DNA of 64,000 nt from Candidatus Magasanikbacteria bacterium RIFOXYC2_FULL_42_28 (GTDB taxonomy: Bacteria; Patescibacteriota; Patescibacteriia; Magasanikbacterales; GWA2-37-8). The notes beneath the pieces are model-generated. The model was not told the origin of the DNA, did no database searches, and worked only from the letters and a program-made list of their open reading frames with translations. Below, in pieces: positions 35,105 to 56,003 of the stretch; the first letter of the stretch is position 1; each line of letters opens with the position of its first letter. The stretch is from contig MFQZ01000001.1 in assembly GCA_001784435.1 (NCBI GenBank), positions 16,032 through 80,031 on the forward strand, read 5' to 3'. Position numbers and translations under genes: made by a program.

Positions 35105-36870
35105 ATATTCAACAACTGCGAAAATTAGAACCGCAAATAATCGCGCTTGGTAATCACCGGCCGATTTTGCAGTCAATGTTGGATTTTGATTTTTATTGTG
35201 GCCGAACCGAGCCGACACTTAAAGCAATTATCGGCACCGGTAAAAAATTTGAGAAATTTTTCTTTGGGAAACGTGAAATCTTAATTCCGGTATATCATGA
35301 TTTAAGTCATGATATAAAAATTAACGCCACTATCAACGGCTTAATCAACGTCAATTCCGGTAGACGCACGCTCGCCTCTATGCGCGCGGCCATATCAGCT
35401 TATCCCAATTTAAAAACAGCCGTACTATTTGCCGAAAATGTGCCGGAAAAACATTCTTTGGAAATGGACAAATTAGCCAAAACCAAAAACATCACCATCA
35501 CCGGTCCGGCCAGTGTGGGCATTTTAATCCCCAATCATTTAAAAATCGGCCCGATCGGGGGCGTAGACCATCGCCAGTTATTATCGGCGAAATTATTTGA
35601 CACGGGCGCGACCGCGGTGTTGTGTTCGTCCGGCGGTATGAGCAACGAAATTATCAACTTACTCGCCCACGCCAACATTCCCCTCTCGTTTGCCGTGGCG
35701 TTTGGTGGTGATCGCTTTCCGGTGCTTACTCCCAAAGAAGCATTTTTGGCCGCGGAAAATGACCCCAACACTAAACAAATTGTTTACTTCGGCGAATTAG
35801 GCGGATATGATGAATACGAACTAGCCGAATTATTAAAAAAGAAAATCATTACTAAGCCCGTTATCGCCTACATCGCCGGCAGTGTGTCCGCGGTCTTTAA
35901 AGAACCACCCCAATTTGGCCATGCCAAAGCGTTGGCGCAACGCGGGGCCGAAACCGCCGTGGCCAAAGCCGAAGCCCTTACTGATGCCGGCGCGCTCGTA
36001 GGAAAATCATTTGCTCAATTTTTAAATTTAATTACTAAAAATATTATGACTCAAAAATCTCCACCCCAAACCCAAATTGATTTATCAGACCGCCGCGCTT
36101 CGCTATTTACCTGTCGCATTTCCGGTGATAAAAACGGTAGTCCGACAATTTTAGGACAAGAATTGGTCGCGGCTGTAAAAACCATGAGTTATTCCGAAAT
36201 GGTCATCGCCTTACTACTTGGTAAAAAACCTAAATCAAAAGAATTGGCGCAATTTACCGATTTGGCACTAAAACTTTTAATTGACCACGGGCCGTATGTG
36301 TCTGGCGCGGTCAACACGATGATTACCGCGCGCGCGGGCAAGGATTTGGTATCGGCCTTGTGCGCCGGACTACTCACCATTGGCGACCGTTTTGGCGGAG
36401 CGATTAACGAAGCGGCCTTGAATTGGTTCACAGCGGTAAATCAAAAAATAGCCGCCGCAAATTTCGTAGAAAATTTTGCCAGCGCCAAAAAAATTATCGC
36501 CGGCATCGGCCATAAAAAATACAGTTCGCACCAGCCGGATGAACGGGTAAAATTAATTTTGGAATTTGCGAAAAAATTAAAATTCCACCCGCATTTGGAT
36601 TTTGCGTTAGGAGTAGCCAAAATAACTTTGGCCAAAAAAGCTAATTTGATTTTAAATGTGGACGGCGCTTTGGCAGCGGTGCTGTTGGATTTGTTACAAG
36701 AAAAAGAAAATTACCAAAAAGAAGAATTGTCCGAACTAATCGCTTCCGGATTTTTTAATTCACTATTCATCCTCGCCCGCAGTGTCGGGTTCGCGGCGCA
36801 TTTCTTGGAACAACGCCGGCTGGATGAAGGGCTGTTCCGCTTGCCGGAGGATAGTGTGAATAATGGTTAA
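35098..36870 (+). CDS. aclA: ATP-citrate lyase subunit A-like (CoA-binding, phosphohistidine, citrate-synthase-like lyase domain)
   Basis: Phosphohistidine loop QFGHAKA; C-terminal HGPYVSGAVNTMITARAGKDLVSALCAGLLTIGDRFGGAINEAA nearly identical in pattern to ACLY citryl-CoA lyase domain. Confidence 0.8.
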   Translation: MLNIQQLRKLEPQIIALGNHRPILQSMLDFDFYCGRTEPTLKAIIGTGKKFEKFFFGKREILIPVYHDLSHDIKINATINGLINVNSGRRTLASMRAAISAYPNLKTAVLFAENVPEKHSLEMDKLAKTKNITITGPASVGILIPNHLKIGPIGGVDHRQLLSAKLFDTGATAVLCSSGGMSNEIINLLAHANIPLSFAVAFGGDRFPVLTPKEAFLAAENDPNTKQIVYFGELGGYDEYELAELLKKKIITKPVIAYIAGSVSAVFKEPPQFGHAKALAQRGAETAVAKAEALTDAGALVGKSFAQFLNLITKNIMTQKSPPQTQIDLSDRRASLFTCRISGDKNGSPTILGQELVAAVKTMSYSEMVIALLLGKKPKSKELAQFTDLALKLLIDHGPYVSGAVNTMITARAGKDLVSALCAGLLTIGDRFGGAINEAALNWFTAVNQKIAAANFVENFASAKKIIAGIGHKKYSSHQPDERVKLILEFAKKLKFHPHLDFALGVAKITLAKKANLILNVDGALAAVLLDLLQEKENYQKEELSELIASGFFNSLFILARSVGFAAHFLEQRRLDEGLFRLPEDSVNNG

Positions 36871-41374: not shown

Positions 41375-43789
41375 TTAATTATTTAATAACCAGTTAAGAT
41401 CTTCTAATAGCACGGCATAGGCCGGAGCGGTAATGGCTTTGTCGCGTTTGTTCGTTAATTCTCTTAAAAAGTTTAGCCCTAAAATTTTGTCAATCCTTTG
41501 GGTCAACCTTTCAATTCTTTCCGCTCGTCTAGGGGCGGGAAATTTTGGTGGTTTGGCTTTGATGGTTTCAATTATCATTTCCAAACGAATGGCGTTTTTT
41601 AATTTGTTTATTAAACTATTTTTGGTGGACAAATTTTTTATCCAGCCCAAAATAAACATTTTTTCAATGTCGGCAATAGTACTGGACGGGGTGGCGATTA
41701 GTTGATAAATGATCGTAGCCGTGGCGGTATTGCCGGCGAAATCAGTGGCGGTAGCGAAAAAAATATGGTTGCCTAATTTTTGGGTGAACAAATCAATTGG
41801 CTCGCCCACGACTACTATTTTACCATCTAACGACCAAACCTGCGACTGGATGCCAGAGTCGGCGTCGGTGCTGGAAACGGAAACTGCCAAACTGTCCACG
41901 CGAGTATAATTCTGTGCCAAAGGCGAATTAATAGTTACTATTGGCGAAATAGTATCTCCAGCTGGTTTTACTTCTAAAACAGACGGCTCGGCATTGTCTA
42001 CTATAAACTCCAAATCGGCAATTTCGTCTGACAAAATTGTGCTTTGGTAATTACTACTTACGGATTGGCTATCGCTGACATAACTAGCGACAATCGTGTA
42101 TTCTCCGCCATCACCGGTACCTTGGGCTTGAATTTTATATTCGCCATCCAGTGGGTTTGGAACGGTAATGTATTCGTTGTCTGTAGCAAAACCAGAATAA
42201 AAAGCACCTTCAATTTCGTTGAATTCTTCGCCGGTATTAAAGTCCTTACCTACGCGCTTACCGTCCGGGGCGATGACGACAATGTCGGCTGGGGAGAGGA
42301 TTTTGATGAGGAGAATTTTGACATTGGGAAAATAAGAATGATTAACTTCAACCGGATCGTTAATATCTGATAGCTGACCTATGATTATTTTTTCCGCCTC
42401 GGTTGGTAAATTTCTATGCCCAGAATTATAAACAACCGTGCGTAAATCATTATTGTAGGCACTAACATATCTACTACTGCGCAGAGGAACCGTATCATCT
42501 CCATCGCCTAATTCCAACCCCAAATCAGCGGTTGTACCATCATATCCATCAGGGAATCCATCTTCCCACACTGGCTTAATAGGTGAATCAACTACCCGAA
42601 TCGTGTTTATGGTGTTACTTGTGTCTAAATTACCAACGATATTAAAAATTGAAACGCCGGAATTAAATAATCGATCAATATTAGCGTTTAACTCTTCTAA
42701 AAACGGATTAACCGGATAATTATTGGGATATGCACGCATTTGGCCGGTGCTTTTGTCTTTTAAATAATCATAAATCGGTAACAATTCTTGGGCTGATGCT
42801 ATTGGTTCACGATGAACATAATCAAAAATATCCATATAGCCGGATTTTTTAGCTTCTCTTGAAAAAAATGATTCTTTTAGGTTGTCTTCTATATTAACTC
42901 CAAACTCCTCCGCCTCCCAAGTTAAATACGATGCTGGTGCCCCCAAATGCGGCGTCCCTAAAAATATCAATTGGTCGACATCTTGAATATAATCATCAGA
43001 TTGGATATATTGCCGCGCGACTAATCCACCCATAGAGTGTCCGACCAAATCCACTTTATCGCACTGGCAATTTTCTTTTACCTCATCAATTTTTTCTTTT
43101 AATTGAAAAGCCGTGTCCACATTGGACTGGCGCCACTCATATGGGAAAGTAAATAAATCATAGCCGAGGCGATAACCATTAGCCACGAAAGTATCCACCA
43201 AATTATCATAGGTATGAAAAATAGGATCAATCACCCACTCACCATTTTTTTGTTCGCTTCCCATAACGCCGGGAATAATAATAACCGGATCGCTTTTTAC
43301 ATTTACTTCGTATTCGCCACTCGCGGGCAAGCGCGCGCTATTGCCAAAACTGTCGGTGGTTTCAAAATGAAACGAATAATGTCCGCGTACGAGAGTGGGA
43401 GATGATGTAAAAATATATTCTATGCCACCATAATAACCACAATTTAAATAATTTTCTTCGCCATTGGGACCAAAACCTAACCAACACTGATCCGCACTGG
43501 CGTTTCTGATCATTGGATAAGAGGCACCATCAATAACGACATTGATATCCAGCGGCGCGTCGTTGTCTTGGTCGGTATAAATCATTTTAAAATCCGGCAC
43601 GGAAGAAATATACCAAGAATATGGCTGCTCATCGATATAAAGATTGGCTTGGTCGTAGGTATGCGACAGGGTTGGTGGTTGATTGTCGGGGATTATAATG
43701 GCCGCCTGTATGACCAATGGCGCGAATAAAAACGCAACAAAAAAAGCCACGGAAATCATGACCTTTTTTGACCAAAAATTATGGTTCAT
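41375..43789 (-). CDS. Secreted alpha/beta-hydrolase lipase (GxSxG) with C-terminal Ig-like/Big-type domains
   Basis: Signal peptide MISVAFFVAFLFAPLVIQA; PGVMGS and VGHSMGGLVARQY lipase-class-2/PGAP1-like motifs; C-terminal beta-rich repeats (SVSSTDADSG...). Confidence 0.6.
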   Translation of the reverse strand: MNHNFWSKKVMISVAFFVAFLFAPLVIQAAIIIPDNQPPTLSHTYDQANLYIDEQPYSWYISSVPDFKMIYTDQDNDAPLDINVVIDGASYPMIRNASADQCWLGFGPNGEENYLNCGYYGGIEYIFTSSPTLVRGHYSFHFETTDSFGNSARLPASGEYEVNVKSDPVIIIPGVMGSEQKNGEWVIDPIFHTYDNLVDTFVANGYRLGYDLFTFPYEWRQSNVDTAFQLKEKIDEVKENCQCDKVDLVGHSMGGLVARQYIQSDDYIQDVDQLIFLGTPHLGAPASYLTWEAEEFGVNIEDNLKESFFSREAKKSGYMDIFDYVHREPIASAQELLPIYDYLKDKSTGQMRAYPNNYPVNPFLEELNANIDRLFNSGVSIFNIVGNLDTSNTINTIRVVDSPIKPVWEDGFPDGYDGTTADLGLELGDGDDTVPLRSSRYVSAYNNDLRTVVYNSGHRNLPTEAEKIIIGQLSDINDPVEVNHSYFPNVKILLIKILSPADIVVIAPDGKRVGKDFNTGEEFNEIEGAFYSGFATDNEYITVPNPLDGEYKIQAQGTGDGGEYTIVASYVSDSQSVSSNYQSTILSDEIADLEFIVDNAEPSVLEVKPAGDTISPIVTINSPLAQNYTRVDSLAVSVSSTDADSGIQSQVWSLDGKIVVVGEPIDLFTQKLGNHIFFATATDFAGNTATATIIYQLIATPSSTIADIEKMFILGWIKNLSTKNSLINKLKNAIRLEMIIETIKAKPPKFPAPRRAERIERLTQRIDKILGLNFLRELTNKRDKAITAPAYAVLLEDLNWLLNN

Positions 43790-43835
43790 ATTTTTTCCCT
43801 CCTTTAAAAATAAAATTCAAATATAGTTTTGACGA

Positions 43836-44222
43836 TCACATACTCCCCAATTTCGCCTTAACAATTTTCACCACCGCGTCCGGCCGCACATCCACTTTGG
43901 AAATAAAATCAATCGCTCCCATCGCTACGCCCTTTTCTTTATTGCCGGCCACCCGTACATTGGACAATAGATACACGGGTATATTTTTTGTGGCCGGATT
44001 ACTTTTCATCTCCGCTAAAATATCAAAGCCACTTTTATTATCATCCAATTGCAAATCCAACAATAATAAATCCGGTTTTATTTCCGCAACCATTTTACGG
44101 CCACTGTCAAAAGTATCGGCCGTTATTAAATCCAATCCTTCCACTTTAAATTTCAGCACATACATATTGGTAATTATCGGCTCATCTTCAATTAACAATA
44201 TTTTTACTTTTTTATTGTTCAT
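43836..44222 (-). CDS. Single-domain response regulator (CheY-like receiver)
   Basis: KILLIEDEP...DLLLLDLQL...K receiver motifs with phospho-acceptor Asp. Confidence 0.75.
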   Translation of the reverse strand: MNNKKVKILLIEDEPIITNMYVLKFKVEGLDLITADTFDSGRKMVAEIKPDLLLLDLQLDDNKSGFDILAEMKSNPATKNIPVYLLSNVRVAGNKEKGVAMGAIDFISKVDVRPDAVVKIVKAKLGSM

Positions 44223-44252
44223 ATTTTTTTAAAATAAAAATTAAACGCTTTT

Positions 44253-46058
44253 TTATTTTTTGGCCAAAATTTCCAAGGCCTTGGTCTCGGGTATAACCGG
44301 AATAGCCGGGATAGTAACGGTAAAAGTAGTACCCTTATCCACCCCCGCACTTTCAAGTGTAATCGCGCCATTATGCGCTTTCACAATTTTTCGCGCGATA
44401 AACAACCCCAAACCAGAACCATCCGGATGCACTAACATCGCCCGTTTGGCGCGTTGGAATTTTTGGAATAAATTGCGTTCCTCTTCTTCGCTTACGCCAA
44501 TACCGGTGTCTTTTATTTCAAATACAACATTCTCGCCACTACCATAAACACGCACGGTCGCCCCGCCTTTTTCCGTGTATTGGCAAGCATCATCAATTAA
44601 ATTCATAAATACTTGCAAAAGTAAAGTTGGATCAGCGGGGAAATACGGCGTGAGTTTCTCAGGCGCAATATATTTTAAATATAATTCTTTTTTGTCATAA
44701 TTCGGTTTAAGAGTGTTAATGGCTTCGGCGACTAACTTTTCCACATTAACCGGTACCAATTTTAACGATAACCCCATTTCTGCTTCCATCGCGTCCATTA
44801 AATCGGCGACGATATTCTTCAGACGGTCGGCCGAAATTAACATATTATTCTGCTGTTCTTTTTGTTCTTTGTCCGATAATTTCTCAAAATCGCCGTCGGC
44901 TTGCATTGACAATAAACCAATCATCGCGGACAATGGCGTGCGTAATTGATGCGAGGCAATATCCAAAAATTCGCTTTTTTGTTTGTCTAATTCTTTTAAA
45001 CTGACATTGGCCGTGTCCAATTGATTATTGCTCACTTCCAAAGATTCGGCCAGTCCTTTGAGCGCGGAATTTTTTTCTTTTAAATTTAAATTGGCGTCGT
45101 CTAATTTAAGGTTGGTGCGTTTCAGATCATTGGCAAGTTTGGCCATTTCTTCGCGAGCTTGAATTTCTTTTTTGACAGAACGAACAAGGAAATAGCCGAG
45201 CGTTGTCACTAAAATAAAAGTAAACACAACAACCACACGGACATTTTCTATCCGTCTGATAAATAAAATTGACAGCACTAAAAAGCCAAGTGCGGAAACT
45301 AACGCCTGAGTGCCAAACATTTTAACATTAAATGCGTTAAATTTAACGATAATATAGGCAAGGAAAGCAACAAATACCGGAGCACCGAAGAGGCCATATT
45401 GACCCAGTGTCCAATCTGCGGTAATACTTTGAACCAAATTGCCCCAAGAAAAAGCCAAAAGAAATAAAGAAATCCCCGAAACAATAAGCAATATCTGTTT
45501 CCTAAATTCTTTATCCGCCTTTATATATTTGGCCACAGAAAATATTAACATCCAAATTATAAAAATAAATTCTATAATATAGCCATACTGAACAAGTGCG
45601 CCCTCAATCGCTGCCCTATCGCAGTTAGTGTGGTCAAAGGCGGATACGCCCAAACTGGTCGGGGCGAGTAATACCATCGGCAAAAGCATTAAAGCAATTA
45701 TAATTTTATTTTTAAAATTTATATCTTTTTTATTTATAAATACATAAACAAAATAAAGACAGCCAGCGTAAATTAACGGCTCTATTAGTACTTCCAAAGC
45801 CCAAAATACCATTATCAATTCCGGCTTTTCGCTCGCCCACAAAACTAGGTCGGCATATACCCAAAAAGAAAAAACTGCCAAGATAAAAAATAGTGCTTGA
45901 TTAATTAGTGATTTTTTATCTTTAAGTAAAATAAAAAAACCGATAATCACAGAAAAGATTAGTGGCAGAAGGTGGGAATAGTAAACAAAGCTTCCAAAAA
46001 CATTCGCGGAAATAATTAAAAACTTTGCATTGTCCCAATTGCAAGATAAATAATCCAT
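44253..46058 (-). CDS. Sensor histidine kinase with N-terminal ~7-TM sensing domain
   Basis: H-box HQLRTPLSAM, N/G1/G2 HATPase boxes (DTGIGV, GSGLGL); long polytopic N-terminus. Confidence 0.8.
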   Translation of the reverse strand: MDYLSCNWDNAKFLIISANVFGSFVYYSHLLPLIFSVIIGFFILLKDKKSLINQALFFILAVFSFWVYADLVLWASEKPELIMVFWALEVLIEPLIYAGCLYFVYVFINKKDINFKNKIIIALMLLPMVLLAPTSLGVSAFDHTNCDRAAIEGALVQYGYIIEFIFIIWMLIFSVAKYIKADKEFRKQILLIVSGISLFLLAFSWGNLVQSITADWTLGQYGLFGAPVFVAFLAYIIVKFNAFNVKMFGTQALVSALGFLVLSILFIRRIENVRVVVVFTFILVTTLGYFLVRSVKKEIQAREEMAKLANDLKRTNLKLDDANLNLKEKNSALKGLAESLEVSNNQLDTANVSLKELDKQKSEFLDIASHQLRTPLSAMIGLLSMQADGDFEKLSDKEQKEQQNNMLISADRLKNIVADLMDAMEAEMGLSLKLVPVNVEKLVAEAINTLKPNYDKKELYLKYIAPEKLTPYFPADPTLLLQVFMNLIDDACQYTEKGGATVRVYGSGENVVFEIKDTGIGVSEEEERNLFQKFQRAKRAMLVHPDGSGLGLFIARKIVKAHNGAITLESAGVDKGTTFTVTIPAIPVIPETKALEILAKK

Positions 46059-46088
46059 AAAATAATTGCTTAAATAAATAGTGCTAAT

Positions 46089-46634
46089 TTATTTAGTGGG
46101 TTGTGCACGCTTGTTGGCATGATGCCTATGATAAGCAGTTTGAAAAAATTTTGGAATGTGTGGCAAATAATTGTCAAAAAAAGATTTCGGTAAAAATTGA
46201 ACCGATCTAACTACTTTTCTGCACCTATCGCTTTTGCAAAGACAACGCATATACCATAACTTCTCACTTTCAATGGTAGAATAATCAAGCGTAATTTCCT
46301 CACCCTGTTTGATGTGCTTTAGAGCCACCACAGTAACTGTGCCCTTAATAGCAGAATTGGGGTGGCAAGAATGGTTTAAATATTTAAATGGCACTGCCGG
46401 ATCTATCCACAAATTCTTTTTTATACCTATCCAGTCTTCACCATACATTGCCGTCTTCATGTCTTTAACCACCCAATGAACAAGTTCGCCTTTAATTATT
46501 GCCACTGTCTCACCCTTTTTAATATCTTTAGAGGCAAAAAGGCCAAACCCGTCAATACGGCTCTTAGATATATAAATTTTTTTATGTTTAAAATTTGTTC
46601 TATCCATACACGATTTATAAAATATGACATCCAA
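46089..46634 (-). CDS. SET-domain protein-lysine methyltransferase with post-SET Cys cluster
   Basis: NHSCHPN, EEITLDY, post-SET CLCKSDRC motifs. Confidence 0.7.
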   Translation of the reverse strand: MDVIFYKSCMDRTNFKHKKIYISKSRIDGFGLFASKDIKKGETVAIIKGELVHWVVKDMKTAMYGEDWIGIKKNLWIDPAVPFKYLNHSCHPNSAIKGTVTVVALKHIKQGEEITLDYSTIESEKLWYMRCLCKSDRCRKVVRSVQFLPKSFFDNYLPHIPKFFQTAYHRHHANKRAQPTK

Positions 46635-46654
46635 ATGAATAATAATTCAACCAA

Positions 46655-47032
46655 TTATCCAAATCTATAAAGCAAAGCCAGCGAAAATAATCCGGCGACT
46701 ATTCCAGCAATCTCGTAAGCATTTAAGCGTTCATTAAAAAATAATACGCCAACTATAACCAGTGCCAAAATCGTCGTAACTCCGTAGATAACACCGAGCG
46801 TGCCTAACTTAATATTTTTCATTACAAAAAACCACCCTACTGCAGTTAAAGAATATACCACAAAACCAATTATAAATAATTTATAATCAATATACTTGGT
46901 TTTATCATCGCCCGATAATTTGATAAAATAATCACCCAAAACGCCAACCAAACTTAAAGCGATAACTAATAAAAACGCATAAAAATAACTCATAAAATCA
47001 TCTAAAAAAATAATGACTACGGGGATGCGCAC
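46655..47032 (-). CDS. Small multidrug-resistance/DMT-like 4-TM transporter
   Basis: 125 aa, four TM helices, size/topology of SMR/EamA half-transporters. Confidence 0.45.
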   Translation of the reverse strand: MRIPVVIIFLDDFMSYFYAFLLVIALSLVGVLGDYFIKLSGDDKTKYIDYKLFIIGFVVYSLTAVGWFFVMKNIKLGTLGVIYGVTTILALVIVGVLFFNERLNAYEIAGIVAGLFSLALLYRFG

Positions 47033-47385
47033 TGGTCGGTGCCTTCATCTCCTGAATTCTCGCATAAAAACTCTAAGCAAGAGGCGTCGCCTGTGCAGGA
47101 AGGAATTGGGCAATCGCTAACTTCGCCAGCGCAATTTGGCAAATTATAGGCCTTCTTTTCTATTATTTTGTAATAACTTGTGCGCTCTTCTGGGTCAGCC
47201 GGACATTCGCTGTCTTCGGATGGATCGCACTCAGACACAAAACACCGTTCAGCCAATTGATCGCACGGCACTTGTAAACGAACGTAATAATCACGTTTAT
47301 TTACATAGCGATAATAAACTACCGCAATTGACGCGACTATGGCTGTAAAAAATATTATAAAAAATATTTTAGATTTTTTGTCCAT
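47017..47385 (-). CDS. Cys-rich secreted/membrane-anchored small protein
   Basis: N-terminal TM anchor, 12 Cys in 122 aa (CDQLAERCFVSECD...CAGEVSDCPIPSCTGDASCLEFLC). Confidence 0.35.
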   Translation of the reverse strand: MDKKSKIFFIIFFTAIVASIAVVYYRYVNKRDYYVRLQVPCDQLAERCFVSECDPSEDSECPADPEERTSYYKIIEKKAYNLPNCAGEVSDCPIPSCTGDASCLEFLCENSGDEGTDQCASP

Positions 47386-47477
47386 AATGTTAAAAATGCC
47401 TTAAATTAAGGGTACTTTTACTATATCACATTTTTCAAATATTTACCACCAACATTAACCCATGGATACTAGACGCT

Positions 47478-47503
47478 ATGATTTAAATATATATTTAAAT
47501 CAT
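47478..47503. promoter_or_regulatory. Perfect 26-nt palindrome ATGATTTAAATATATATTTAAATCAT
   Basis: Core ATTTAAATATATATTTAAAT identical to sites at 16525-16544 and 54624-54643; lies between two island genes upstream of the Cys-rich gene. Confidence 0.45.
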
Positions 47504-47506
47504 GAT

Positions 47507-47983
47507 TTAATTTTTGCCTTCAAAATCAATTAATATCTGTAAATAACGCTTTTGTAGTTCAATATTGGCATACTCTGCTGGAAACATTGAAATTTTACCA
47601 CCGTTGTTAATAATATCGTCAATGCCGTCAAAATAAAACCCGTCCAATGTGGCAATAAACAAATAAGACGGATTCCACGATTTACTCATTCGCACGGCGT
47701 CTTCTAAAACATATTTTAAATTTAAATTACGCATATATTTTACCTCAACCAGCTGAACTTTTTTTGTTTTCTGATTGATAACTGCGAAATCTGGTGCTGT
47801 TCGTAGCGTCTCAATAATGTCGTTATTTTTCTTATCGTGTCCTTGTTGGACTAATTCAGGAATTATTTTTTCATAACCAAATTCCAAAACCGTAAAATCT
47901 TTGGTTTCGCGCAACATTTGCGCGAAGATTGTCTCGGCAATTTTACCTTTGACTAAATTTCTGGCAAAAGTTATGTTGCTCAT
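47507..47983 (-). CDS. Small putative PD-(D/E)XK-fold nuclease-like protein
   Basis: Pattern GKIAE...PDFAV...VQLVEVKY resembling the D...(E/Q)xK core of Hjc/Mrr-like nucleases; inference only. Confidence 0.3.
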   Translation of the reverse strand: MSNITFARNLVKGKIAETIFAQMLRETKDFTVLEFGYEKIIPELVQQGHDKKNNDIIETLRTAPDFAVINQKTKKVQLVEVKYMRNLNLKYVLEDAVRMSKSWNPSYLFIATLDGFYFDGIDDIINNGGKISMFPAEYANIELQKRYLQILIDFEGKN

Positions 47984-47986
47984 AAG

Positions 47987-50900
47987 TTATTCAATTACTT
48001 TTTTTAATTCCCAAAAACGATTGCTGCCTTTTACTAACAACTCATTAATTAAATTAACAACACCGTCTTTAGTTTGTGAATTTTTATACAATGTTTTTAA
48101 TGCCGTTGTGATACTATCGCCATAAAGAGAATAAGCAAAATAACCAGGCCCAGCGACCACTTGTTGCATCAAATAAAGCTCCAAAATTATTAAAGTGTCT
48201 TCCGGCGCGGCATTGGCAAAATCCGGCAATCTATTGATGACGCCATGTTCCCATTCAATGTCGCCGTTACTTTTTTCCAACGATTGTTTAAAGTGCAAAA
48301 CCAACCATTTTAAATCTGTAAACAATCTTTGTTTTTCTCCAACCCAAAAACCAAAATAAGCAAAAATTTCATTTTCGCCGTCAATGGGGTTTGCCAAAAT
48401 CCAATCCCACAGGTTACTTAATTTCCCCCTAATAACATCCGCGTTAATTTTATTAACCAACATAAATTCAGCCGGATCATCACGGGATATGAAATGTCGC
48501 CCAATATACGATACGAACTCGCCGTGGCGTTTTTGTCCGGCTGTGTCCCAAAACAATTTAAATATTGGTGAATTAAAATCAAAATTACCATAATGAACAT
48601 AAGCCAAAGCCAAATGAATAGCCAGCCCTTCATCTAATTCTTTGGAATAATGACGCTTGGTATATTCGTTACTTGGCATTTCAATCAAGCGTTTATAAAT
48701 ATTACTCAAATCATCAAATAATTCTTCATACAAATCAGCAGTTAAATAACCCTCAACCGCGGCCAAAAATAAATCCTTTTTTGCTAGCGCAGACGAAAAT
48801 ATTTTGGGAATCATCTTTTTCATCCATTCTTTATCACGATAATAAAAAGTCGGAAGATAACGACCAAATAAAAACATTACCGCGCGAGTATTTTCTATTT
48901 CTAAAATTTGCTCATAAATCTTTTTAACATCTTCGCTAATCTTGGCTATATCTTCTTTGGTAAAATTATTTTTCCCGTCCAAATACACAAATAATGCCAA
49001 CGATTCAAACGCGCGGCCACGGACAGAATTAATAGCGTGAGTGAACGGATCACTGCCGTTTTCAACATTCTCACTTTCTGGATCAGGGTCAGAATGGCGG
49101 AGTAAATATGAAATTATAGCAAGGATCCGTTTCCTATTCTTTTTGAAATCAATCAATTGACCGCTATGTTTACCTGATAAGATAATTTTTAATAACTCGG
49201 AAATTTCACCATGCACGCCCGCCCAATCGACCAACCATGTGCTACCAAGCTCTGCCCTGCCTTTACGCACGCTTAAAAATTGTGTTAGCGCAGAAGAACT
49301 TTTGATAACATCAAACAAATCTAATAGTTTTTCCAAATCGAGGCCGCCACTATACTCGTCTTGACGAATAACTGCTTCAATGCCGTGTAAAAATGAATAG
49401 GTATAATGCTGATCTAAAATATCTCTCTGAAAAAATAAATTAGCATTATCAAGATATGCCCCCGGTCTTTTGGCAATATCCTGCACGAGCATATTGCCCA
49501 TACCGTCGGCACTTAGTGGATTTAAAAAATTCCGTTCTCCATCTTTTTTATATAAACTCTCCGGCGACCATTCCGATAATAATTTATCCACCATCGTTGA
49601 TATTTCCATTTTATTCAACTCCGGCAAATCTATCGGAGCACGCGGTCTGACCATTCCGCCAGTAACAGGTCCGTATCCTGCAATAGGTTCAAATTTTTGA
49701 TCTAATTCTTTGTCAAAAATTTGTTTCGCCATATTTTTTTTCACATCTGTCAAATTATCAAATATACTAGACAGGATTTCCCAGCCATCACTTTTATACA
49801 TTGTTTCATCTTTTTTATCTGTCCGCTCTTTACCGAAATAATTAAAAACCTGCTTAACGTATTCTTCTTTGTCTGTTTTGTCTAAATCAAAAAAGCATTT
49901 ATTTAAGGCATGACAATATTCTGGACTATACAACTCATAATATTTTTCTTCATCAGCGAATATATCAAAAAAAGCTTTTTTCAATTCATCTTTAAACACT
50001 TCCGGACACAAGCTCCATATAAAAAGACGGAAACGATAAAACGATTGAGTATTTGGCAAATTTTTTATATACAAACCATGCAATCTTTGGGCATCGTCGC
50101 ATTTTCCATTGAATAAGGACTTCGCTAATTTGGTAATTGTCGCTGCTAAATCGTGTACATTATCACGCAATGAAAGATGGGCTTTGATATTTAAATCAAG
50201 CACAAAAAAATCAACATCAAACAGATAATAATTTTCTTTGGCATCAAAATATTTACTATCTGATCTGCCGGAAGAAACTGCAATATCTTTTAAAATATTC
50301 AAAAGTAATTTAAATGTCCGCTCTACATAATCGTCGTCTATCAAACTAAGATAATTAAATACTTTTGTATGCTCTAAATCGTTAATATAAAAAGGATTAT
50401 CAGAAAAATTATTGGTTTTATCTCGTTCGGCTTGGCTACGAATTGTTAGCACCGCCTCGGCCAATTCTAACAATCCGCTGTATTCTTTTGCTACAGACAA
50501 TTCTTTGAGTATTTCTTCATATTCAAATCCCCACCGACTAAACGGTGCCAACAGTTTCACCCATTCATTATTCTTTATCATTCCTGTTAATTTTACAATT
50601 TGCGCAGCTGGTAATTTGGAACAAATATGCAAAAAAATATCAACTACTTCCGGATTAAAATTTTTGACCGACATGCTGACAGTCAAAATTATATCCGCGA
50701 CTTTTTCTGGATTATTTTCTGCCATTCGCTCTAAATATCCTAACTCTGGTAAGGAATATGAATATCTAGTTGGATCTGCAGATTTTTGTTTTATAGCGTT
50801 TAAAAAACCGCCATTCCACAACCAGTCAAGCCAACGTTCGTCGGCTTTTGTAAAAAAATATCTATATGCGTCCGAATTAAAAGATAAAATTAAAAAAACT

Positions 50901-51532
50901 CTATCAGCATCAACAAAAAGCGGATCGCAGACAAGAATCCTATCAATTATATTATGAATTGAAATTTGTTGAGGCAGCAATACACACCAAACATTTGTCA
51001 AAATAACAACCAATTTTTTAAAATGAGTGTAGCCAAATTTTGACACATCATAAAGTTCAACTTGTAAATTGTTAATTTTCTTAATAAAATCACTATGTTT
51101 CGACGAATCTCTAAAGTGGTGCGCAATTTGTGTAAAAATAAAATATAAGTCATTCAGAGTAGTAGCAATCTCATCTATCTGCTCCTCGTTGCTATCGATT
51201 TTATTTTCGGCAATTATTTTTTTCAAAAAATCTTTTCTATGCATCTCTCGACTTTCTTTTGGCAGATTGATAATATCATTTTTATACTGATAGAGAATTT
51301 CTCTTAATGAGTGGGCAGCTTGTGATAGATAATCTGGGTTCTTGGAACGATTATTATCGTTTAGTAAAAAAATAGCACCTCTATACAAAATAGATGGTGC
51401 GATAGCAGGACAAAAAATACTGACCCTATTCAGTTTATCCAAATATGATACCAACCACTCGATTTTTTCTTTAGGAATAAAATCTCCACGATCAGAAATA
51501 GCGTCCTTTAATTCGCTGTTCATAATTACCAC
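47987..51532 (-). CDS. Large uncharacterised protein (1181 aa), no recognisable motifs
   Basis: Long uninterrupted ORF tightly packed (3-nt gap) with downstream nuclease-like gene and 63 nt after putative REase; no Walker A/helicase/DDE motifs seen. Confidence 0.5.
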   Translation of the reverse strand: MVIMNSELKDAISDRGDFIPKEKIEWLVSYLDKLNRVSIFCPAIAPSILYRGAIFLLNDNNRSKNPDYLSQAAHSLREILYQYKNDIINLPKESREMHRKDFLKKIIAENKIDSNEEQIDEIATTLNDLYFIFTQIAHHFRDSSKHSDFIKKINNLQVELYDVSKFGYTHFKKLVVILTNVWCVLLPQQISIHNIIDRILVCDPLFVDADRVFLILSFNSDAYRYFFTKADERWLDWLWNGGFLNAIKQKSADPTRYSYSLPELGYLERMAENNPEKVADIILTVSMSVKNFNPEVVDIFLHICSKLPAAQIVKLTGMIKNNEWVKLLAPFSRWGFEYEEILKELSVAKEYSGLLELAEAVLTIRSQAERDKTNNFSDNPFYINDLEHTKVFNYLSLIDDDYVERTFKLLLNILKDIAVSSGRSDSKYFDAKENYYLFDVDFFVLDLNIKAHLSLRDNVHDLAATITKLAKSLFNGKCDDAQRLHGLYIKNLPNTQSFYRFRLFIWSLCPEVFKDELKKAFFDIFADEEKYYELYSPEYCHALNKCFFDLDKTDKEEYVKQVFNYFGKERTDKKDETMYKSDGWEILSSIFDNLTDVKKNMAKQIFDKELDQKFEPIAGYGPVTGGMVRPRAPIDLPELNKMEISTMVDKLLSEWSPESLYKKDGERNFLNPLSADGMGNMLVQDIAKRPGAYLDNANLFFQRDILDQHYTYSFLHGIEAVIRQDEYSGGLDLEKLLDLFDVIKSSSALTQFLSVRKGRAELGSTWLVDWAGVHGEISELLKIILSGKHSGQLIDFKKNRKRILAIISYLLRHSDPDPESENVENGSDPFTHAINSVRGRAFESLALFVYLDGKNNFTKEDIAKISEDVKKIYEQILEIENTRAVMFLFGRYLPTFYYRDKEWMKKMIPKIFSSALAKKDLFLAAVEGYLTADLYEELFDDLSNIYKRLIEMPSNEYTKRHYSKELDEGLAIHLALAYVHYGNFDFNSPIFKLFWDTAGQKRHGEFVSYIGRHFISRDDPAEFMLVNKINADVIRGKLSNLWDWILANPIDGENEIFAYFGFWVGEKQRLFTDLKWLVLHFKQSLEKSNGDIEWEHGVINRLPDFANAAPEDTLIILELYLMQQVVAGPGYFAYSLYGDSITTALKTLYKNSQTKDGVVNLINELLVKGSNRFWELKKVIE

Positions 51533-51595
51533 GTTGTTTTATTTATTTTAGCCATTATTGTGTTCCAACATTTTTTGGTAACAATATCTATATTT

Positions 51596-52654
51596 TTACC
51601 AACTGCCAGCTGTCTTAAGTTTAAAATAGCCCCGCTCTTTAATAAAAGGCAATAGCTCAGAATTAGACGGGAACTCTAAATTAAATTCTCTCTCAACGTC
51701 TCTTAGTAAAAACTTACCGAGATTATTCCTGTATTTATCACTTAAACAAATTTTATACCACTGATCCAGATCGTTCATGGTAATAATGCCTTGAATTTTT
51801 TCGCCCCAGCCCACTTGGGATAATAAGTTTTCTATCGCGGTTTTTTCAGAATCAACACAAACTACCACTATCCTATCGGCGGCAATTCCAGTGGCCACAT
51901 CTTCTATAATTTCAGGTGTCAACGTCAAATGTTTTACCTGGACAGCCAAACCAAAATTAGCCCACATATCCAAACCCCTGTCAGCAGCATTGGCCACGCC
52001 AGCCCTATATAAAGCCGCCGGCAATGTTATTTTGGTATTTTTAGCATCAATTCCCAAAACCATTTTAATAAAAGGCTCAAAATCTTGAAGAAGCTGCTTA
52101 TTGTCATTTAAAATTTCCAAAGTTATTTGCGCGCGCAATGCCCTAACAATTGTAGAAAATAGGGCATAAACTAAAATCTCATAAATTTTATCCGTGCTTC
52201 TTTTTAATCCAGGATCTAAAACAAAAAAATTGACTAACTTTTTTAAATCAAAAGTTGAAGCCGTTGACTTGCTAACATATAAATTCACATCGTGCACAGA
52301 AGACAATCTGGTGTTAAGGGCGTTGTAAATATAGGCCTCCACCAATCCACTTTCCCGTTTATTAAAATTCCCTAAATCACGCAATAAACTTGGCGGTATT
52401 GCGTTAATCTCAAAAATGTTATCCTGAAATTTTTGGCTTGACGTGCAAACTCTGCCGACCAAACGACCAGAAACCTCATCTCGCCATTTTTTTGAAACAT
52501 TGCGATAAGATTCCAAATCAAGAAGAACCCAACGTCTTTTGTCCGTTCTATGGTGAAATAAAATTTCAGCAATTTGAATTGGTTTGTACAAATGAACGCG
52601 TGATTTGCGTATTATTGTATCAAGCGCATTTTTTGCGATATTAATTTTAGGCAT
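51596..52654 (-). CDS. Putative type II restriction endonuclease (context-based)
   Basis: 352-aa ORF overlapping the 3' end of the C5-methyltransferase gene by 8 nt, typical R-M operon arrangement; possible D...QVK catalytic core (DMWANFGLAVQVKH). Confidence 0.35.
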   Translation of the reverse strand: MPKINIAKNALDTIIRKSRVHLYKPIQIAEILFHHRTDKRRWVLLDLESYRNVSKKWRDEVSGRLVGRVCTSSQKFQDNIFEINAIPPSLLRDLGNFNKRESGLVEAYIYNALNTRLSSVHDVNLYVSKSTASTFDLKKLVNFFVLDPGLKRSTDKIYEILVYALFSTIVRALRAQITLEILNDNKQLLQDFEPFIKMVLGIDAKNTKITLPAALYRAGVANAADRGLDMWANFGLAVQVKHLTLTPEIIEDVATGIAADRIVVVCVDSEKTAIENLLSQVGWGEKIQGIITMNDLDQWYKICLSDKYRNNLGKFLLRDVEREFNLEFPSNSELLPFIKERGYFKLKTAGSW

Positions 52655-54422
52655 ACACTCTTTCTTTTTTTATAATTAATGAGTCAATTTTAGAAGATTC
52701 TCTTACTGGCATTTTTTTCATTGCTTCTACCATCGCGCGAGCAACCGCTTGAATTTTTGGAACGACAACGCTATTACCGGCCTGCTTCCGCGCTTGTGTA
52801 TCAGGAACAACAATACGAAAAGTATCTGGAAAACCTTGGAGACGCAACAGCTCTCTTGGTGTCAAACGTCTTTCCCCATTAACTGTCAGATAATTATAAG
52901 AACCGTTGGCTCTTAAGGCACACGAGTATGGGTGCATTCCGATATTACCACCCTTATTTTCATGCCAGACAGACGGCTTTGGTGCCGGCACTTTCCCCTG
53001 CTCTACCAACCTCTTCTGCAATTTTTGTTTAAAACTTTCACTCAAATAATGTTTTTTATCTATCTGACTTTTTGGTTCCAAAATATCAGATAGCGTTTTC
53101 GTCTCTGAAACACCCGTGGGAAACTCAAAAGGATAATTTTCCTTGAAACCAACTATGATTATACGCTCTCTTTTCTGCGGGACACCAAAGTCAAGACCGT
53201 TGAGAACATTAAAGTGAACAAAGTATCCCAAACTTTTCAAAGATTCTATAATTATTTTAAATGTGCGCCCATCATCATGCGAAGTTAATTGTTTAACATT
53301 CTCCAACAAAAAAGCTTTCGGCTGTTTGGCTTTTAATATTCTTTCAACATCAAAAAATAAAGTGCCGCGAGTATCAGCGAACCCTCGTTTTTTGCCAATT
53401 ATACTAAACGCTTGGCAGGGAAAACCGCCGGTGAGGATATCGTGATCAGGTATTTCGTCCGCAGAAATTTTTGTTATATCTCCGTGTGGTTTATCCCCAA
53501 AATTTGCTTCATACATAACTTGACACGGCTCATCAAATTCGGATGTAAATACACACTTGCCGCCATTGCGTTCAAAAGCAATTCTGACACCGCCGATGCC
53601 AGCGAATAAATCTATAAAACGAAATGAGTTATTGTCGGTTGAAAAATCATCATTCAAATTACTTTTATAAAAATATGCTCGTCTTGTGTCTGTAAGTAGA
53701 CTAAACAAAGAAACTTGCAAACCTTCCGCGACATACTCGGCATTAACAAATTCTGTATTATTTATTTCAGCTAATACGCTATGTGCGTGGTCTTTTGACA
53801 CTATAATAAAATCATCAACATTAACACCCATTAATTGTCCGGCCTCGGCAATTCTTTTAACTACCTGCTTGTCTTCATCACTTGGACTCACATCACCGGA
53901 AGGGTGATTATGAATAACAATCACGCTCGCGGCTCGAAGTTCTATCGCCAGTGCAAAAATTTCGCGAGGGTGAACAATATTTTTATCAAGCGTCCCAATA
54001 AAAATTGTTTCTTTCTTTATCAATGCTTTGCGCGCATTTAAATACAAACAAACAAGATGTTCTTGTTTTTTATCTTTCAAATCGGCGACTAATTTAACCG
54101 CATCTTTTGCAGATAGAACCAAATCATCGGGAGCATTTTGTCTGTCATTAAGTCTTTTTGCAAGTGCCACCATGGAAAGAATCTGTAAGGCCTTTGCCTG
54201 TCCGATTCCGTGAATCTTCATTAAATCTTCAACCGAGACATTTATCAAATTATCACCAAACTTTTTAAGAATTTTTTGCGCCAAAACTTTAACGTTAACA
54301 TTTTTGGTGCCGCTTCCAAGTTGAATAGCTAAAAGTTCACCATCGGTTAAGGCATCTGGTCCTTTTTCTAAAAATTTTTCTCTGGGGCGGTCAAATTTTG
54401 GTGTATCTTTTAATTTTGTCAT
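52647..54422 (-). CDS. Fusion protein: RadC-like JAB/MPN domain (N-term) + DNA (cytosine-5)-methyltransferase (C-term)
   Basis: RadC HhH + JAMM motif VIVIHNHPSGDVSPSDED; C5-MTase motifs I FIDLFAGIGG, IV GFPCQAFS, VI ENV, VIII QKRERIIIVG, X GNSVVVP; single uninterrupted 591-aa ORF. Confidence 0.8.
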   Translation of the reverse strand: MTKLKDTPKFDRPREKFLEKGPDALTDGELLAIQLGSGTKNVNVKVLAQKILKKFGDNLINVSVEDLMKIHGIGQAKALQILSMVALAKRLNDRQNAPDDLVLSAKDAVKLVADLKDKKQEHLVCLYLNARKALIKKETIFIGTLDKNIVHPREIFALAIELRAASVIVIHNHPSGDVSPSDEDKQVVKRIAEAGQLMGVNVDDFIIVSKDHAHSVLAEINNTEFVNAEYVAEGLQVSLFSLLTDTRRAYFYKSNLNDDFSTDNNSFRFIDLFAGIGGVRIAFERNGGKCVFTSEFDEPCQVMYEANFGDKPHGDITKISADEIPDHDILTGGFPCQAFSIIGKKRGFADTRGTLFFDVERILKAKQPKAFLLENVKQLTSHDDGRTFKIIIESLKSLGYFVHFNVLNGLDFGVPQKRERIIIVGFKENYPFEFPTGVSETKTLSDILEPKSQIDKKHYLSESFKQKLQKRLVEQGKVPAPKPSVWHENKGGNIGMHPYSCALRANGSYNYLTVNGERRLTPRELLRLQGFPDTFRIVVPDTQARKQAGNSVVVPKIQAVARAMVEAMKKMPVRESSKIDSLIIKKERVYA

Positions 54423-54623
54423 AATTTAAAAAACCTGCCAATGCTTATAAAAATCTACAATGCATATGCCGACCGTTTGTGGCCATTTAGTCGGTGAGTG
54501 TAATTTGGTACCCAGACGATAATATTCTACCACAATTCGCCAAACCAATCAACAACGAAGGGATGATTGCTTTTGACCAATTAGTTGCGTTAATTGAGAT
54601 AATAAACCGCAATAATTTATCCT

Positions 54624-54968
54624 AATTTAAATATATATTTAAATACTAATACGCCCCACACACCGCCCACCCAAACAAGCCCGCCCAATACACCCACCCG
54701 CCTCTGGCGGGGACAAGCAAAAAGTAATTTTCAATACAAACGGACAGGGGGGGCTGGTCGCGGACAATTTGCCACGACTTGGTCGGGGCAAACGGGTTCG
54801 CGGTTTCCGCTTTTTCTTTCAGAAAAAAACAAACTTGTTTGTTCGCCAGTCCGCTGGACTGGCAGGCGGAAACTCGATTGCTGGCCAATAATATTTTTTT
54901 CAAAAAAGGTTCGCACGTCGTTCAGTGACTGCGACAAAACAAAAAAGAAAGTGGGTGCTTTCTTTTTT
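54624..54968. repeat. Right copy of ~340-bp inverted repeat (IR-R); inner end is the 28-nt AT palindrome string, outer end hairpin aaaaaagaaagtgggtgctttctttttt
   Basis: Reverse complement aligns with 40029-40370; hairpin maintained by compensatory pairs (gccagtcc-agcg-ggactggc vs ccccgtcc-ggcg-ggacgggg). Confidence 0.85.
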
Positions 54969-54992
54969 GTTTGTTTTAAATTTTAATTTTAT

Positions 54993-56003
54993 CTACCCGC
55001 AAATCGTCTCAATCAGCTTAGCACAAACCTGATACGGATCCATATTGGCGGCCGGACGCCGATCTTCCAAATACCCCATCCCGCTATTGGCTGTGGCCAT
55101 TGGGATGCGAATAGACGCGCCCCGATCAGAAACGCCATAACGAAAATCCGTCATACTGGAAGTTTCGTGTTTGCCGGTTAGCCGTTCTTCGTTGTGAGCG
55201 CCGTAAACCGCGATGTGCTCGCTATGCTTTAATTTTAATTTCTCGCAAGCGGCTTTGACAACTTCAATTCCGCCCGGAGCACGCATCGCATTAGTAGAAA
55301 AATTAGTGTGCGCTCCCGCTCCGTTCCAATCCCCTTTTACCGGTTTGGGGTCAAGCGTGGCTGACACTTTAAAATCTTCGGCAACGCGATACAATAACCA
55401 CCGACAAAGCCACAGCTGGTCGGCGGCCGCGAGCGGTCCAAGTGGTCCCACTTGAAATTCCCACTGCCCGGGCATAACTTCGGAATTGATACCAGAAAGC
55501 GTGATACCGGCTTTTAAACACAGCTCCATGTGTTTCTCTACAATCGGCCGGCCAAACACTTCATCCGCGCCCACACCGCAATAATATCCGCCCTGCGGGG
55601 CCGGGAAACCATTGCTGGGCCAACCCAGAGGTTTGACGCCCTCAAAAAAAGTATATTCTTGTTCAATACCAAACCAACTGTCATGACTTTTAAATTCTTC
55701 GGCTACGCCACGCAAATGCGCGCGGGTATTGCTCACGTGCACTGAACCATCAGCATTTAACACTTCACATAATACCAAAATATTTTCCCCGCCGCGAATG
55801 GGATCAGGAATATAAGTAGCGGGCTTTAATTGGCAGTCACTAAAATGACCTTCGGCCTGATAGGTACTGGAACCATCAAATCCCCAATCCGGTAAATCAG
55901 CCAAAGAACGAACCGGCCCATCCACGATTTTCGTTTTTGAGCGTAATTTGGCGCTGGGCTTTTGCCCGTCCACCCAAATGTACTCGGCCATGATTTTGGA
56001 CAT
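54993..56003 (-). CDS. glnII: Glutamine synthetase type II (eukaryote-like GSII)
   Basis: 336 aa; MAEYIWVDG N-terminus and overall collinearity with GSII rather than dodecameric GSI. Confidence 0.75.
   Translation of the reverse strand: MSKIMAEYIWVDGQKPSAKLRSKTKIVDGPVRSLADLPDWGFDGSSTYQAEGHFSDCQLKPATYIPDPIRGGENILVLCEVLNADGSVHVSNTRAHLRGVAEEFKSHDSWFGIEQEYTFFEGVKPLGWPSNGFPAPQGGYYCGVGADEVFGRPIVEKHMELCLKAGITLSGINSEVMPGQWEFQVGPLGPLAAADQLWLCRWLLYRVAEDFKVSATLDPKPVKGDWNGAGAHTNFSTNAMRAPGGIEVVKAACEKLKLKHSEHIAVYGAHNEERLTGKHETSSMTDFRYGVSDRGASIRIPMATANSGMGYLEDRRPAANMDPYQVCAKLIETICG

Follow-up and report, generated by a model that had tools for sequence, protein, structure and literature searches.

Modification enzymes of the HaeII/HhaI type of restriction-modification (R-M) system, such as M.HhaI (PDB 1fjx, 10mh), are cytosine-5 (C5) DNA methyltransferases (MTases) that start ~10 residues before motif I, and this is also the case for characterised M.HaeII-type enzymes and for stand-alone relatives that share 75-82% identity with the MTase half of the window. 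Long-form RadC proteins (UPF0758; E. coli YicR type, PRK00024, PDB 2qlc) are stand-alone polypeptides of ~220 aa, consisting of a UPF0758_N/helix-hairpin-helix (HhH) region and a JAB domain with a full JAMM motif. Published RadC fusions include those to HhH, ArdC, a DnaG-like primase and a DinG/RAD3 helicase (Iyer et al. 2011, PMC3239186), as well as polyvalent proteins of conjugative elements (PMC5512222); neither source reports a DNA methyltransferase as a partner. The window described here, a stretch of 64,000 nucleotides from contig MFQZ01000001.1 of Candidatus Magasanikbacteria bacterium RIFOXYC2_FULL_42_28, contains a gene in which the two kinds of protein are joined. Its M.HhaI-like core, with all catalytic motifs, is preceded by a 266-residue RadC-plus-linker head, and a HaeII-family (R.HaeII, PF09554) endonuclease gene is coupled to it downstream.

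We are nearly certain that the product of this gene is the modification subunit of a Type II R-M system of the HaeII type (probably RGCGCY) on a Candidatus Magasanikbacteria chromosome, in which an M.HhaI-like C5-MTase lies behind a catalytically intact long-form RadC and a flexible linker of ~50 residues, and that RadC-headed DNA methyltransferases like it make up a large family. Judged by their sequences, the MTase and the endonuclease do not stand out within the M.HhaI and R.HaeII families, respectively. What appears new in this otherwise known kind of Type II R-M system is its RadC-headed modification subunit. Like the published RadC fusions, the RadC-headed MTases unite RadC and a DNA-acting enzyme in one polypeptide in the context of a conflict system. 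However, the published fusions are found on mobile elements and prophages, whereas the RadC-headed MTases occur in chromosomal R-M operons, where RadC invariably forms the N-terminus and has the same linker peptide behind it. A full-text literature search, which did not cover REBASE, the InterPro architecture tables or subscription journals, turned up no account of RadC fused to an MTase, of RadC in connection with the sliding clamp, or of R-M methylases with clamp-binding motifs. In the source annotation, fusions appear as 'DNA repair protein RadC' or as 'DNA (cytosine-5)-methyltransferase 1', and the architecture has very likely been visible in databases without having been interpreted.

The fusion gene and its partner endonuclease

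The original prediction for this locus held that a complete RadC module runs without a stop into a full C5-MTase with motifs I, IV, VI, VIII and X. The open reading frame (ORF) is indeed uninterrupted over its 591 codons (Table 1), and both modules are complete. A junction had been expected at ~53770-53790; the computed junction (53625-53774, residues 217-266) lies slightly downstream.

In the RadC half, Pfam matches to UPF0758_N (PF20582, residues 5-78, E 1e-22) and HhH (PF00633, residues 57-83, E 2e-5) precede the JAB domain. The N-terminal 216 residues pass the NCBIfam model for the RadC equivalog PRK00024 (219.2 bits, cutoff 180), and the RadC half also exceeds TIGR00608 (208.8 bits, cutoff 133.85). 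RadC accounts for residues 1-222 of the 591-aa protein, compared with ~210-235 aa for stand-alone RadC. The JAMM glutamate is E121, and all other JAMM residues are present, so the metal and catalytic residues are intact and the N-terminal part is not a generic HhH domain lacking JAMM ligands. The same prediction had likened this part to the RadC-like JAB proteins of mobile elements, a likeness that does not hold. RadC-like and polyvalent anti-restriction proteins of mobile elements are short JAB-only or multidomain proteins encoded on prophages, integrative and conjugative elements or plasmids beside anti-restriction or toxin-antitoxin genes, whereas the head of the fusion is a RadC of the long, housekeeping type (PRK00024 equivalog) in a chromosomal context of the candidate phyla radiation (CPR), with genes for alanyl-tRNA synthetase (AlaRS), RpoD, DnaG and a glutamine synthetase (GS)-like protein.

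The C-terminal part is identified as dcm (TIGR00675, 332 bits) in NCBIfam, and the MTase half matches M.HhaI (1fjx) with E 7e-75 over residues 11-317 of 327. In addition to motif IV, motifs I (FAGIGG, residues 273-278), VI (ENV, 374-376), VIII (QKRER, 416-420) and X (GNS, 549-551) can be recognised. Divergence within the family is mostly in residues 451-525, in the target-recognition region between motifs VIII and IX. PADLOC classifies the MTase half as MTase_II (E 2e-123), and the RadC part is covered by no PADLOC defence model.

A search of the databases for the same architecture recovered full-length fusions with the same three Pfam domains as 89 of the 120 best homologues (50-81% identity), in addition to ~57 species-representative genomes. 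The fusion had been called unusual, and set against the literature and the enzymes characterised so far it is; among metagenomes and metagenome-assembled genomes (MAGs), on the other hand, it is common, and is limited neither to C5 enzymes nor to HaeII systems. The identical 591-aa protein is encoded on at least four contigs from different assemblies (JGI, ENA and Logan). Were the fusion the product of an assembly or sequencing indel joining separate radC and methylase genes, neither this repetition nor in-frame fusions with a conserved linker in 89 clusters and ~57 genomes would be expected; the chance of such a frameshift artefact is negligible, and it is excluded for practical purposes.

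Conservation extends to both active sites. The JAMM residues E121, H171, H173, S181 and D184 are invariant in the alignment of the 89 fusion homologues, as are F273/G275/G277, P335-C336-Q337, E374-N375-V376, Q416/R418/R420 and G549-N550 of the MTase. By this invariance both enzymes are under purifying selection within the fusion, and on the JAB side the alignment tells only that the activity of this domain is selected; the coupling of MTase activity to a JAB-mediated processing or nuclease function that the original prediction suggested is a hypothesis.

The start of the endonuclease gene overlaps the stop of the fusion gene by 8 nt on the same strand, and the two are translationally coupled. 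The endonuclease is REase_II in PADLOC (E 6e-118), and as a full-length HaeII-family enzyme it bears out the view that the MTase is the modification enzyme of an R-M pair. Recognition of RGCGCY is probable from membership of the HaeII family and from the M.HhaI-like (GCGC) core. The site is not avoided across the window (60 observed, ~52 expected). All 60 sites lie outside a 12-kb block containing the R-M pair, where ~7.1 would be expected and none is found despite 32 GCGC tetranucleotides (P(0) = 0.0015). This block fits an acquired island purged of the target of its own R-M system, and would indirectly support the RGCGCY assignment.

Table 1. Positions of features in the window, and of two related loci (last two rows) in symbiont genomes
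Feature	Position	Strand	Basis or remark
RadC-linker-C5-MTase fusion gene, R-M modification subunit	52647..54422	(-)	uninterrupted ORF, 591 aa
UPF0758_N/HhH region of RadC, residues 5-83	54174..54410	(-)	Pfam; helical in AlphaFold2 (AF2) model
RadC JAB/MPN domain, residues 104-216	53775..54113	(-)	PF04002 E 8e-36; PDB 2qlc match E 3e-24
JAMM motif, residues 171-184, H171-N-H173-P-S-G-D-V-S-P-S181-D-E-D184 = HNHPSGDVSPSDED	53871..53912	(-)	
Inter-domain linker, residues 217-266, ~50 aa, predicted flexible	53625..53774	(-)	AF2 model; identity step
Linker peptide, residues 229-243, E229-Y-V-A-E-G-L-Q-V-S-L-F-S-L-L243, with clamp-binding-like Q236-V-S-L-F240	53694..53738	(-)	
C5 cytosine DNA methyltransferase domain, residues 267-565, M.HhaI-like	52728..53624	(-)	PF00145 E 1e-96
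MTase motif IV P335-C336-Q337, catalytic cysteine	53412..53420	(-)	read from sequence; 89/89 conserved
HaeII-family Type II restriction endonuclease, 352 aa	51596..52654	(-)	PF09554 E 3e-124, 1-338/338
RGCGCY-free block, 12 kb, contains R-M pair, possible acquired island	43135..55196		GC 0.37 vs 0.41 elsewhere
Candidate sigma-70-like promoter of the M-R operon: TTGATT, 17 nt, TG-TAGAAT	54524..54552	(-)	in the 570-bp upstream gap; consensus scan; no enrichment over shuffles
L059 RadC-headed locus	5001-9300		SUP05-type symbiont genome
L060 RadC-headed locus	5001-8800		SUP05-type symbiont genome

A constant head and exchangeable cassettes

The most informative feature of the fusion, absent from the original prediction, is a near-invariant peptide in the linker, past the normal C-terminus of RadC and ahead of MTase motif I. 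The stretch of the window's linker that spans Q236-F240 is NAEYVAEGLQVSLFSLLTD. Y230, A232, G234, L239 and F240 are found in all 89 C5 fusions, Q236 in 88 and S238 in 87. When the MTase classes are taken together, in 57 genomes, the peptide has the consensus Y-V-A-[DE]-G-x-Q-x-[ST]-L-F-D-L-L-E; Y is present in 57, Q in 55, L and F in 54 each, G in 53 and [ST] in 51. All four codons of Gly, Ala and Val and all six codons of Leu are used in these residues, indicating that selection acts on the linker peptide and not on a DNA site. In the AF2 model, built from a 67-sequence alignment (predicted template modelling score, pTM, 0.54), the MTase core has predicted local distance difference test (pLDDT) values of 85-96, while residues 234-264 fall below 50 and are packed against neither domain.

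None of 138 stand-alone RadC representatives contains the linker motif. In the homologue P0066, the RadC-like N-terminus has decayed and has neither the HxH site nor the HhH region, yet the linker G-Y-I-A-E-G-R-Q-A-T-L-F-D-L-L (GYIAEGRQATLFDLL) is kept. Being conserved, predicted flexible and independent of its fused neighbours, the peptide carries the signature of a short linear motif that would bind a partner. As MTases and nucleases vary by locus and the hosts span phyla, one would expect this partner to be the head itself or a host protein that is conserved universally.

Two side observations concern these proteins. The P0066 gene (L009, 6001-7539) encodes an HaeII-type MTase, is followed by R.HaeII and Vsr, and lies inside a fatty-acid-synthesis neighbourhood of a non-CPR genome. 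Among the 138 stand-alone RadCs, about a dozen end in a short ...[LI]-F-[DNS] tail such as QKELFN, PALFD or SEIFNE (P0144, P0148, P0171, P0179, P0180, P0231, P0239, P0244 and P0256 are included), and this tail could be a related but simpler version of the fused clade's linker motif, placed at the C-terminus for binding a partner.

The head and linker (residues 1-255) were searched against 1.84 billion cluster representatives. Every representative that matches through the linker is a long protein, with a methyltransferase domain of the C5, D12-class N6-adenine or N6_N4 kind. Ordinary RadCs of ~220 aa are at most 46% identical to the fused head, and their match ends at about residue 215. On these sequence comparisons the fused RadC heads form a clade apart from stand-alone RadCs, from which they differ also by the C-terminal linker peptide.

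A scan of species-representative genomes with the RadC-plus-linker alignment yielded ~60 loci, mostly in Patescibacteria lineages. Other hosts, by label, are SUP05-type gammaproteobacterial symbionts, Cloacimonadota, Omnitrophota, Atribacteria, Planctomycetia, Nautiliales and others. Complete genomes with a RadC-headed MTase include OY821614.1 and OZ244052.1. In 57 of the loci the head continues in frame into an MTase, which is of the C5 class in ~17, of the DPPY/D12 class in ~33 and of the SPPY or NPPF kind in a few. RadC-headed MTases lead at least eight kinds of R-M system (HaeII, HpaII, HinP1I, NgoFVII-like, EcoRII, MvaI/BcnI, AlwI and PLD-type). An AlwI-family endonuclease is located tightly behind the MTase in ~30 loci, with a second D12 MTase between the two in 18 of them, and in other species-genome loci this position is occupied by an HpaII, NgoFVII-like, PLD-type, EcoRII or MvaI/BcnI endonuclease.

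This range of partners bears on the idea that the head deals with damage specific to C5 chemistry, its JAB protease or nuclease resolving covalent Cys-cytosine adducts between MTase and DNA or the lesions left by m5C deamination. C5-MTases do form covalent intermediates, and Vsr is found behind several C5 cassettes. However, the partners of the head and linker are most often D12 N6-adenine MTases (~33 of 57 loci), with N4/N6 enzymes among the others, and no covalent adducts or T:G mismatches arise from either kind. With D12 and N4/N6 partners the commoner, a C5-specific explanation is largely refuted and we consider it extremely improbable.

Comparison of the two halves of the fusions shows that each has a history of its own. 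The RadC half is 63-77% identical to that of the window in all fusions. The identity of the MTase half, by contrast, ranges overall from 33 to 85%: it is ~83% for the nearest group and 70% for P0007, falls to ~43% for the group with the most members, and is 33% for P0073. The endonuclease changes as well, being of the HaeII family behind P0007 and P0066, of the HpaII family followed by Vsr in the ~43% group, and of the HinP1I family behind P0073, which has a helix-turn-helix (HTH) controller gene upstream. P0073 has the RadC head closest to that of the window (77%), yet its cassette is unrelated. The identity profile of P0002 against P0073 remains at 75-90% to about residue 240-260 and then drops to 30-40%.

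The same break is seen between two related SUP05-type symbionts. Loci L059 and L060 are syntenic on both sides, with 78% nucleotide identity in the flanks, and their RadC modules are 90% identical. Homology stops at about codon 239, beyond which one locus carries a C5 MTase and an NgoFVII-like nuclease and the other a D12 MTase and an AlwI-like nuclease. That the head is more conserved than the flanks suggests a recent exchange that took in the head. From these comparisons and those of P0073, the RadC head and linker peptide are the constant part, and the MTase (C5, D12 or N4/N6) and endonuclease are an exchangeable cassette, with the break directly behind the linker. The exchange of DpnI and DpnII cassettes is a parallel case of a constant head and variable cassettes. 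Polymorphic toxin systems (PMC3482391) also combine a constant 5' module with exchangeable 3' cassettes and break at a domain boundary; however, their constant part is a trafficking domain, whereas in the RadC-headed loci it is an enzyme with intact catalytic residues, and the swapped unit is a whole MTase and endonuclease pair.

Cassette exchange of this kind could in principle account for the fusion without any function of the head. The 3' end of a resident radC and the linker would then serve as an upstream homology arm for M-R exchange, and the fusion would be a tolerated by-product providing only transcription and translational coupling. The exchange behind a constant module at the syntenic L059 and L060 and the incongruent identities of RadC and MTase agree with this, as do stand-alone methylases of 330-340 aa that are 75-82% identical to the MTase half of the window, so that the MTase works without a head. 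However, the linker is conserved as a peptide with all synonymous codons, unlike a DNA crossover site, and the codon analysis rules out a DNA-level recombination site as the sole explanation. Furthermore, the in-frame fusion is kept in ~57 genomes and three MTase families, and the linker motif survives where RadC decays, as in P0066. The fused heads are a clade of their own (at most 46% identical to stand-alone RadCs) with different flanking genes in different phyla, so that they travel with the cassettes and have spread horizontally. As a complete account a landing pad of this sort is rather unlikely; more probably it holds alongside the best explanation and complements it.

Several loci have additional features. 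One (L025, DUGB01000073.1) and several others come from MAGs labelled Woesearchaeota (archaeal), Bdellovibrionales or Eubacteriales, which reflects either genuine transfer between domains or phyla or the misbinning of Patescibacteria contigs. In L007, L022 and L025 the RadC-headed MTase has a small HTH_3 controller-like gene upstream. In three AlwI-type loci (L040, L042 and L065), a conserved 282-aa DUF4357 protein with a weak match (E 4e-4) to RAMA, or 'restriction enzyme adenine methylase associated', is encoded directly upstream of the RadC-D12 fusion. In Candidatus Moraniibacteriota (JAPLXG010000013.1; L001, 8001-12702), a RadC-headed HpaII-type R-M system and Vsr are immediately followed by a CD-NTase and a Cap15-like effector of a cyclic-oligonucleotide-based antiphage signalling system (CBASS), forming a compact defence island.

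Possible functions of the RadC head

Among universally conserved host proteins, the best candidate for a partner of the linker peptide is the beta sliding clamp, because Q-x-S-L-F fits its consensus QL[SD]LF. This bacterial clamp-binding consensus is variable and sits in flexible regions (PMC6511837); binding depends critically on Q1 and F5 and is possible between partners from different phyla (PMC4549789). Q236-V-S-L-F240 fits at positions 1, 3, 4 and 5, and position 2 is variable in the 57 genomes. The linker is similar to known clamp binders (polymerases, MutL, Hda and IS transposases) in having a short Q-x-[ST]-L-F within a predicted flexible segment, in the variability of what surrounds it, and in being borne by carriers that move between phyla.

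We propose that the RadC head is a targeting and processing module for an R-M methylase. Its HhH region would make sequence-independent contact with DNA, and the exposed linker peptide would dock on a universally conserved host platform, for which the hydrophobic cleft of the beta clamp is the best candidate. Docking would concentrate a methylase of any specificity on newly made, clamp-marked DNA, and host DNA would thereby be modified before the co-expressed endonuclease cuts. The benefit would be greatest just after a cassette had been acquired or swapped, when the chromosome is unprotected. The active JAB centre would act at the same sites on a nucleic-acid or nucleoprotein substrate, since with invariant ligands it must do something beyond tethering. 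A partner that is the same in all bacteria would explain how one head serves unrelated MTases in many phyla. Tethering to the clamp through the head and linker is a tentative suggestion from sequence resemblance, and we put the explanation as a whole at somewhat short of an even chance.

If the motif does bind the clamp, there would be a likeness to eukaryotic DNMT1 and PCNA, where an MTase is tethered to a sliding clamp by a short motif in its N-terminal region and methylation tracks synthesis. This is an analogy only, as the two have independent origins and the bacterial case involves R-M systems, several MTase classes and an added RadC enzyme.

A number of points weigh against a clamp tether. 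Position 2 of the motif is not Leu, the motif is internal rather than terminal, and it sits in a conserved block of ~20 residues that reaches ~6 residues upstream and 8 downstream of Q-x-S-L-F, beyond a minimal clamp-binding motif; clamp binding by the fusion is putative, and with a block of this length a different partner is conceivable, among them the RadC domain of a second subunit. Low pLDDT is no proof of disorder in the linker, and with the motif missing from stand-alone RadCs there is no sign that RadC itself binds the clamp. Tethering alone leaves the invariant JAB centre unexplained. The selective benefit of clamp coupling is an argument, not an observation, and hemimethylated DNA after replication already resists most Type II enzymes.

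The position of a conserved and (by prediction) exposed peptide directly after the JAB domain also allows another role for the invariant JAMM site. The RadC JAB domain could be a metallopeptidase that cuts at the linker peptide, in cis or in trans, and frees RadC and MTase in a 1:1 ratio; the JAB domains characterised so far have peptidase activity, and for polyvalent proteins, processing by peptidases embedded in them has been proposed. However, RadC-type JABs have been argued to lack the groove for a ubiquitin tail and to act more likely on nucleic acids (Iyer et al. 2011, PMC3239186). The linker motif has no Gly-Gly, AF2 does not put the linker in the JAB site, and P0066 keeps the motif though its JAB metal ligands are lost. 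Self-processing therefore seems to us decidedly unlikely.

The enrichment of the fusions in Patescibacteria, which would scavenge DNA, raises the possibility that the head directs the MTase to single-stranded DNA entering the cell, or to its conversion to duplex, as in the DpnA-like protection of transforming DNA. RadC is reportedly part of the competence regulons of several bacteria, its relatives are fused on conjugative elements to the single-stranded-DNA-binding ArdC and to primases, and RadC fusions to DnaG-type primase and DinG helicase are described as well; clamp loading during complementary-strand synthesis would also be compatible. Competence genes, however, are linked in none of the loci examined, M.HhaI-type enzymes act on duplex DNA, and fusions also occur in non-CPR lineages. 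Protection of incoming DNA finds no direct support in these data, and its probability is low.

A DNA-binding HhH region at the N-terminus might also bind the promoter of its own operon and so control expression of both M and R. N-terminal extensions of M.SsoII and M.EcoRII-type C5-MTases are autoregulatory, and no HTH ORF that could be a C-protein gene is present in the window's 570-bp gap upstream of the fusion. However, HhH motifs bind DNA without sequence specificity, the same head occurs in operons with unrelated promoters, several loci already have an upstream HTH controller gene, and a repressor has no need of invariant JAMM residues. Promoter autoregulation is accordingly very improbable.

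A broader reading of the proposed clamp docking, which we hold to be possible but unlikely, is that RadC, or at least its fused clade, would be a sliding-clamp-associated DNA-processing enzyme. R-M methyltransferases of any chemistry would be tethered to the replication clamp via a portable RadC-plus-QxSLF head, as a counterpart of DNMT1-PCNA, and the same head would be the docking point for swaps of M-R cassettes.

Surroundings of the operon and significance

The AlaRS is ~100% identical to that of Candidatus Magasanikbacteria bacterium RIFOXYC2_FULL_42_28, which makes the host a member of the Patescibacteria/CPR. The window is chromosomal, with genes for AlaRS, MnmA, RpoD, DnaG, a CCA-adding enzyme and a CorA transporter in addition to rhamnose and glycosyltransferase genes. 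No integrase, conjugation or anti-restriction genes are found near the R-M pair, and there is no second radC within the window. The RGCGCY-free block also contains a 1181-aa ORF, small ORFs, a SET-domain gene and a histidine kinase/response regulator pair. The 1181-aa ORF (47987-51532, (-)) shares the strand of the endonuclease gene and comes 63 nt behind it. It has no match in Pfam, NCBIfam or PADLOC, and is present in a near-identical contig (L006) but absent from a related HaeII-type locus (L008). Without family matches, and given this absence, it is not included as part of the R-M system, and it may be an unrecognised defence or island gene.

Directly upstream of the fusion lies a small glutamine-synthetase-like gene (336 aa, 54993-56003, (-)), which has a higher GC content (0.47-0.50) than its neighbours and is located at the edge of the RGCGCY-free block. 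A terminator-like hairpin with a 16-bp stem follows it (54937-54972). The 570-bp gap before the fusion is AT-rich apart from ~300 bp (54645-54940) that are unusually GC-rich, contain several G/C hairpins and are unique in the window. The gap contains no tRNA and no Rfam RNA at the gathering threshold (best E = 0.2); the fold z-score is only -1.7, and no RNA gene or tRNA integration site was found there.

Elsewhere in the window, adjacent genes for proteins of 388 and 590 aa (33938-36870, (+)) are flanked by tRNA-Pro genes at 33836 and 39951. CoA-ligase and citrate-synthase C-terminal domains occur together in the 590-aa product, an arrangement like that of ATP-citrate lyase and unexpected in a metabolically reduced Patescibacteria genome.

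To our knowledge, RadC is among the most widespread bacterial proteins still without a known activity, and its original assignment to DNA repair is said to have been disputed under the title 'RadC, a misleading name?'. In the present family a RadC with intact catalytic residues is physically coupled, strictly, repeatedly and under selection, to a single activity, the methylation of DNA in R-M systems, and the linker provides a discrete conserved peptide suitable for mutation and as bait. The family thus offers a concrete and testable way into the question of RadC function. Annotation is affected as well, since the fusions are named for one half only and the PADLOC models recognise only the MTase half. 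If the peptide does bind the beta clamp, this would put RadC where DNA is being synthesised, and the family would be the first reported case, as far as we found, of a clamp-tethered bacterial R-M methylase. Whatever the mechanism, a constant head with an exchangeable cassette is a simple route by which Patescibacteria and small-genome symbionts can diversify the specificity of restriction.

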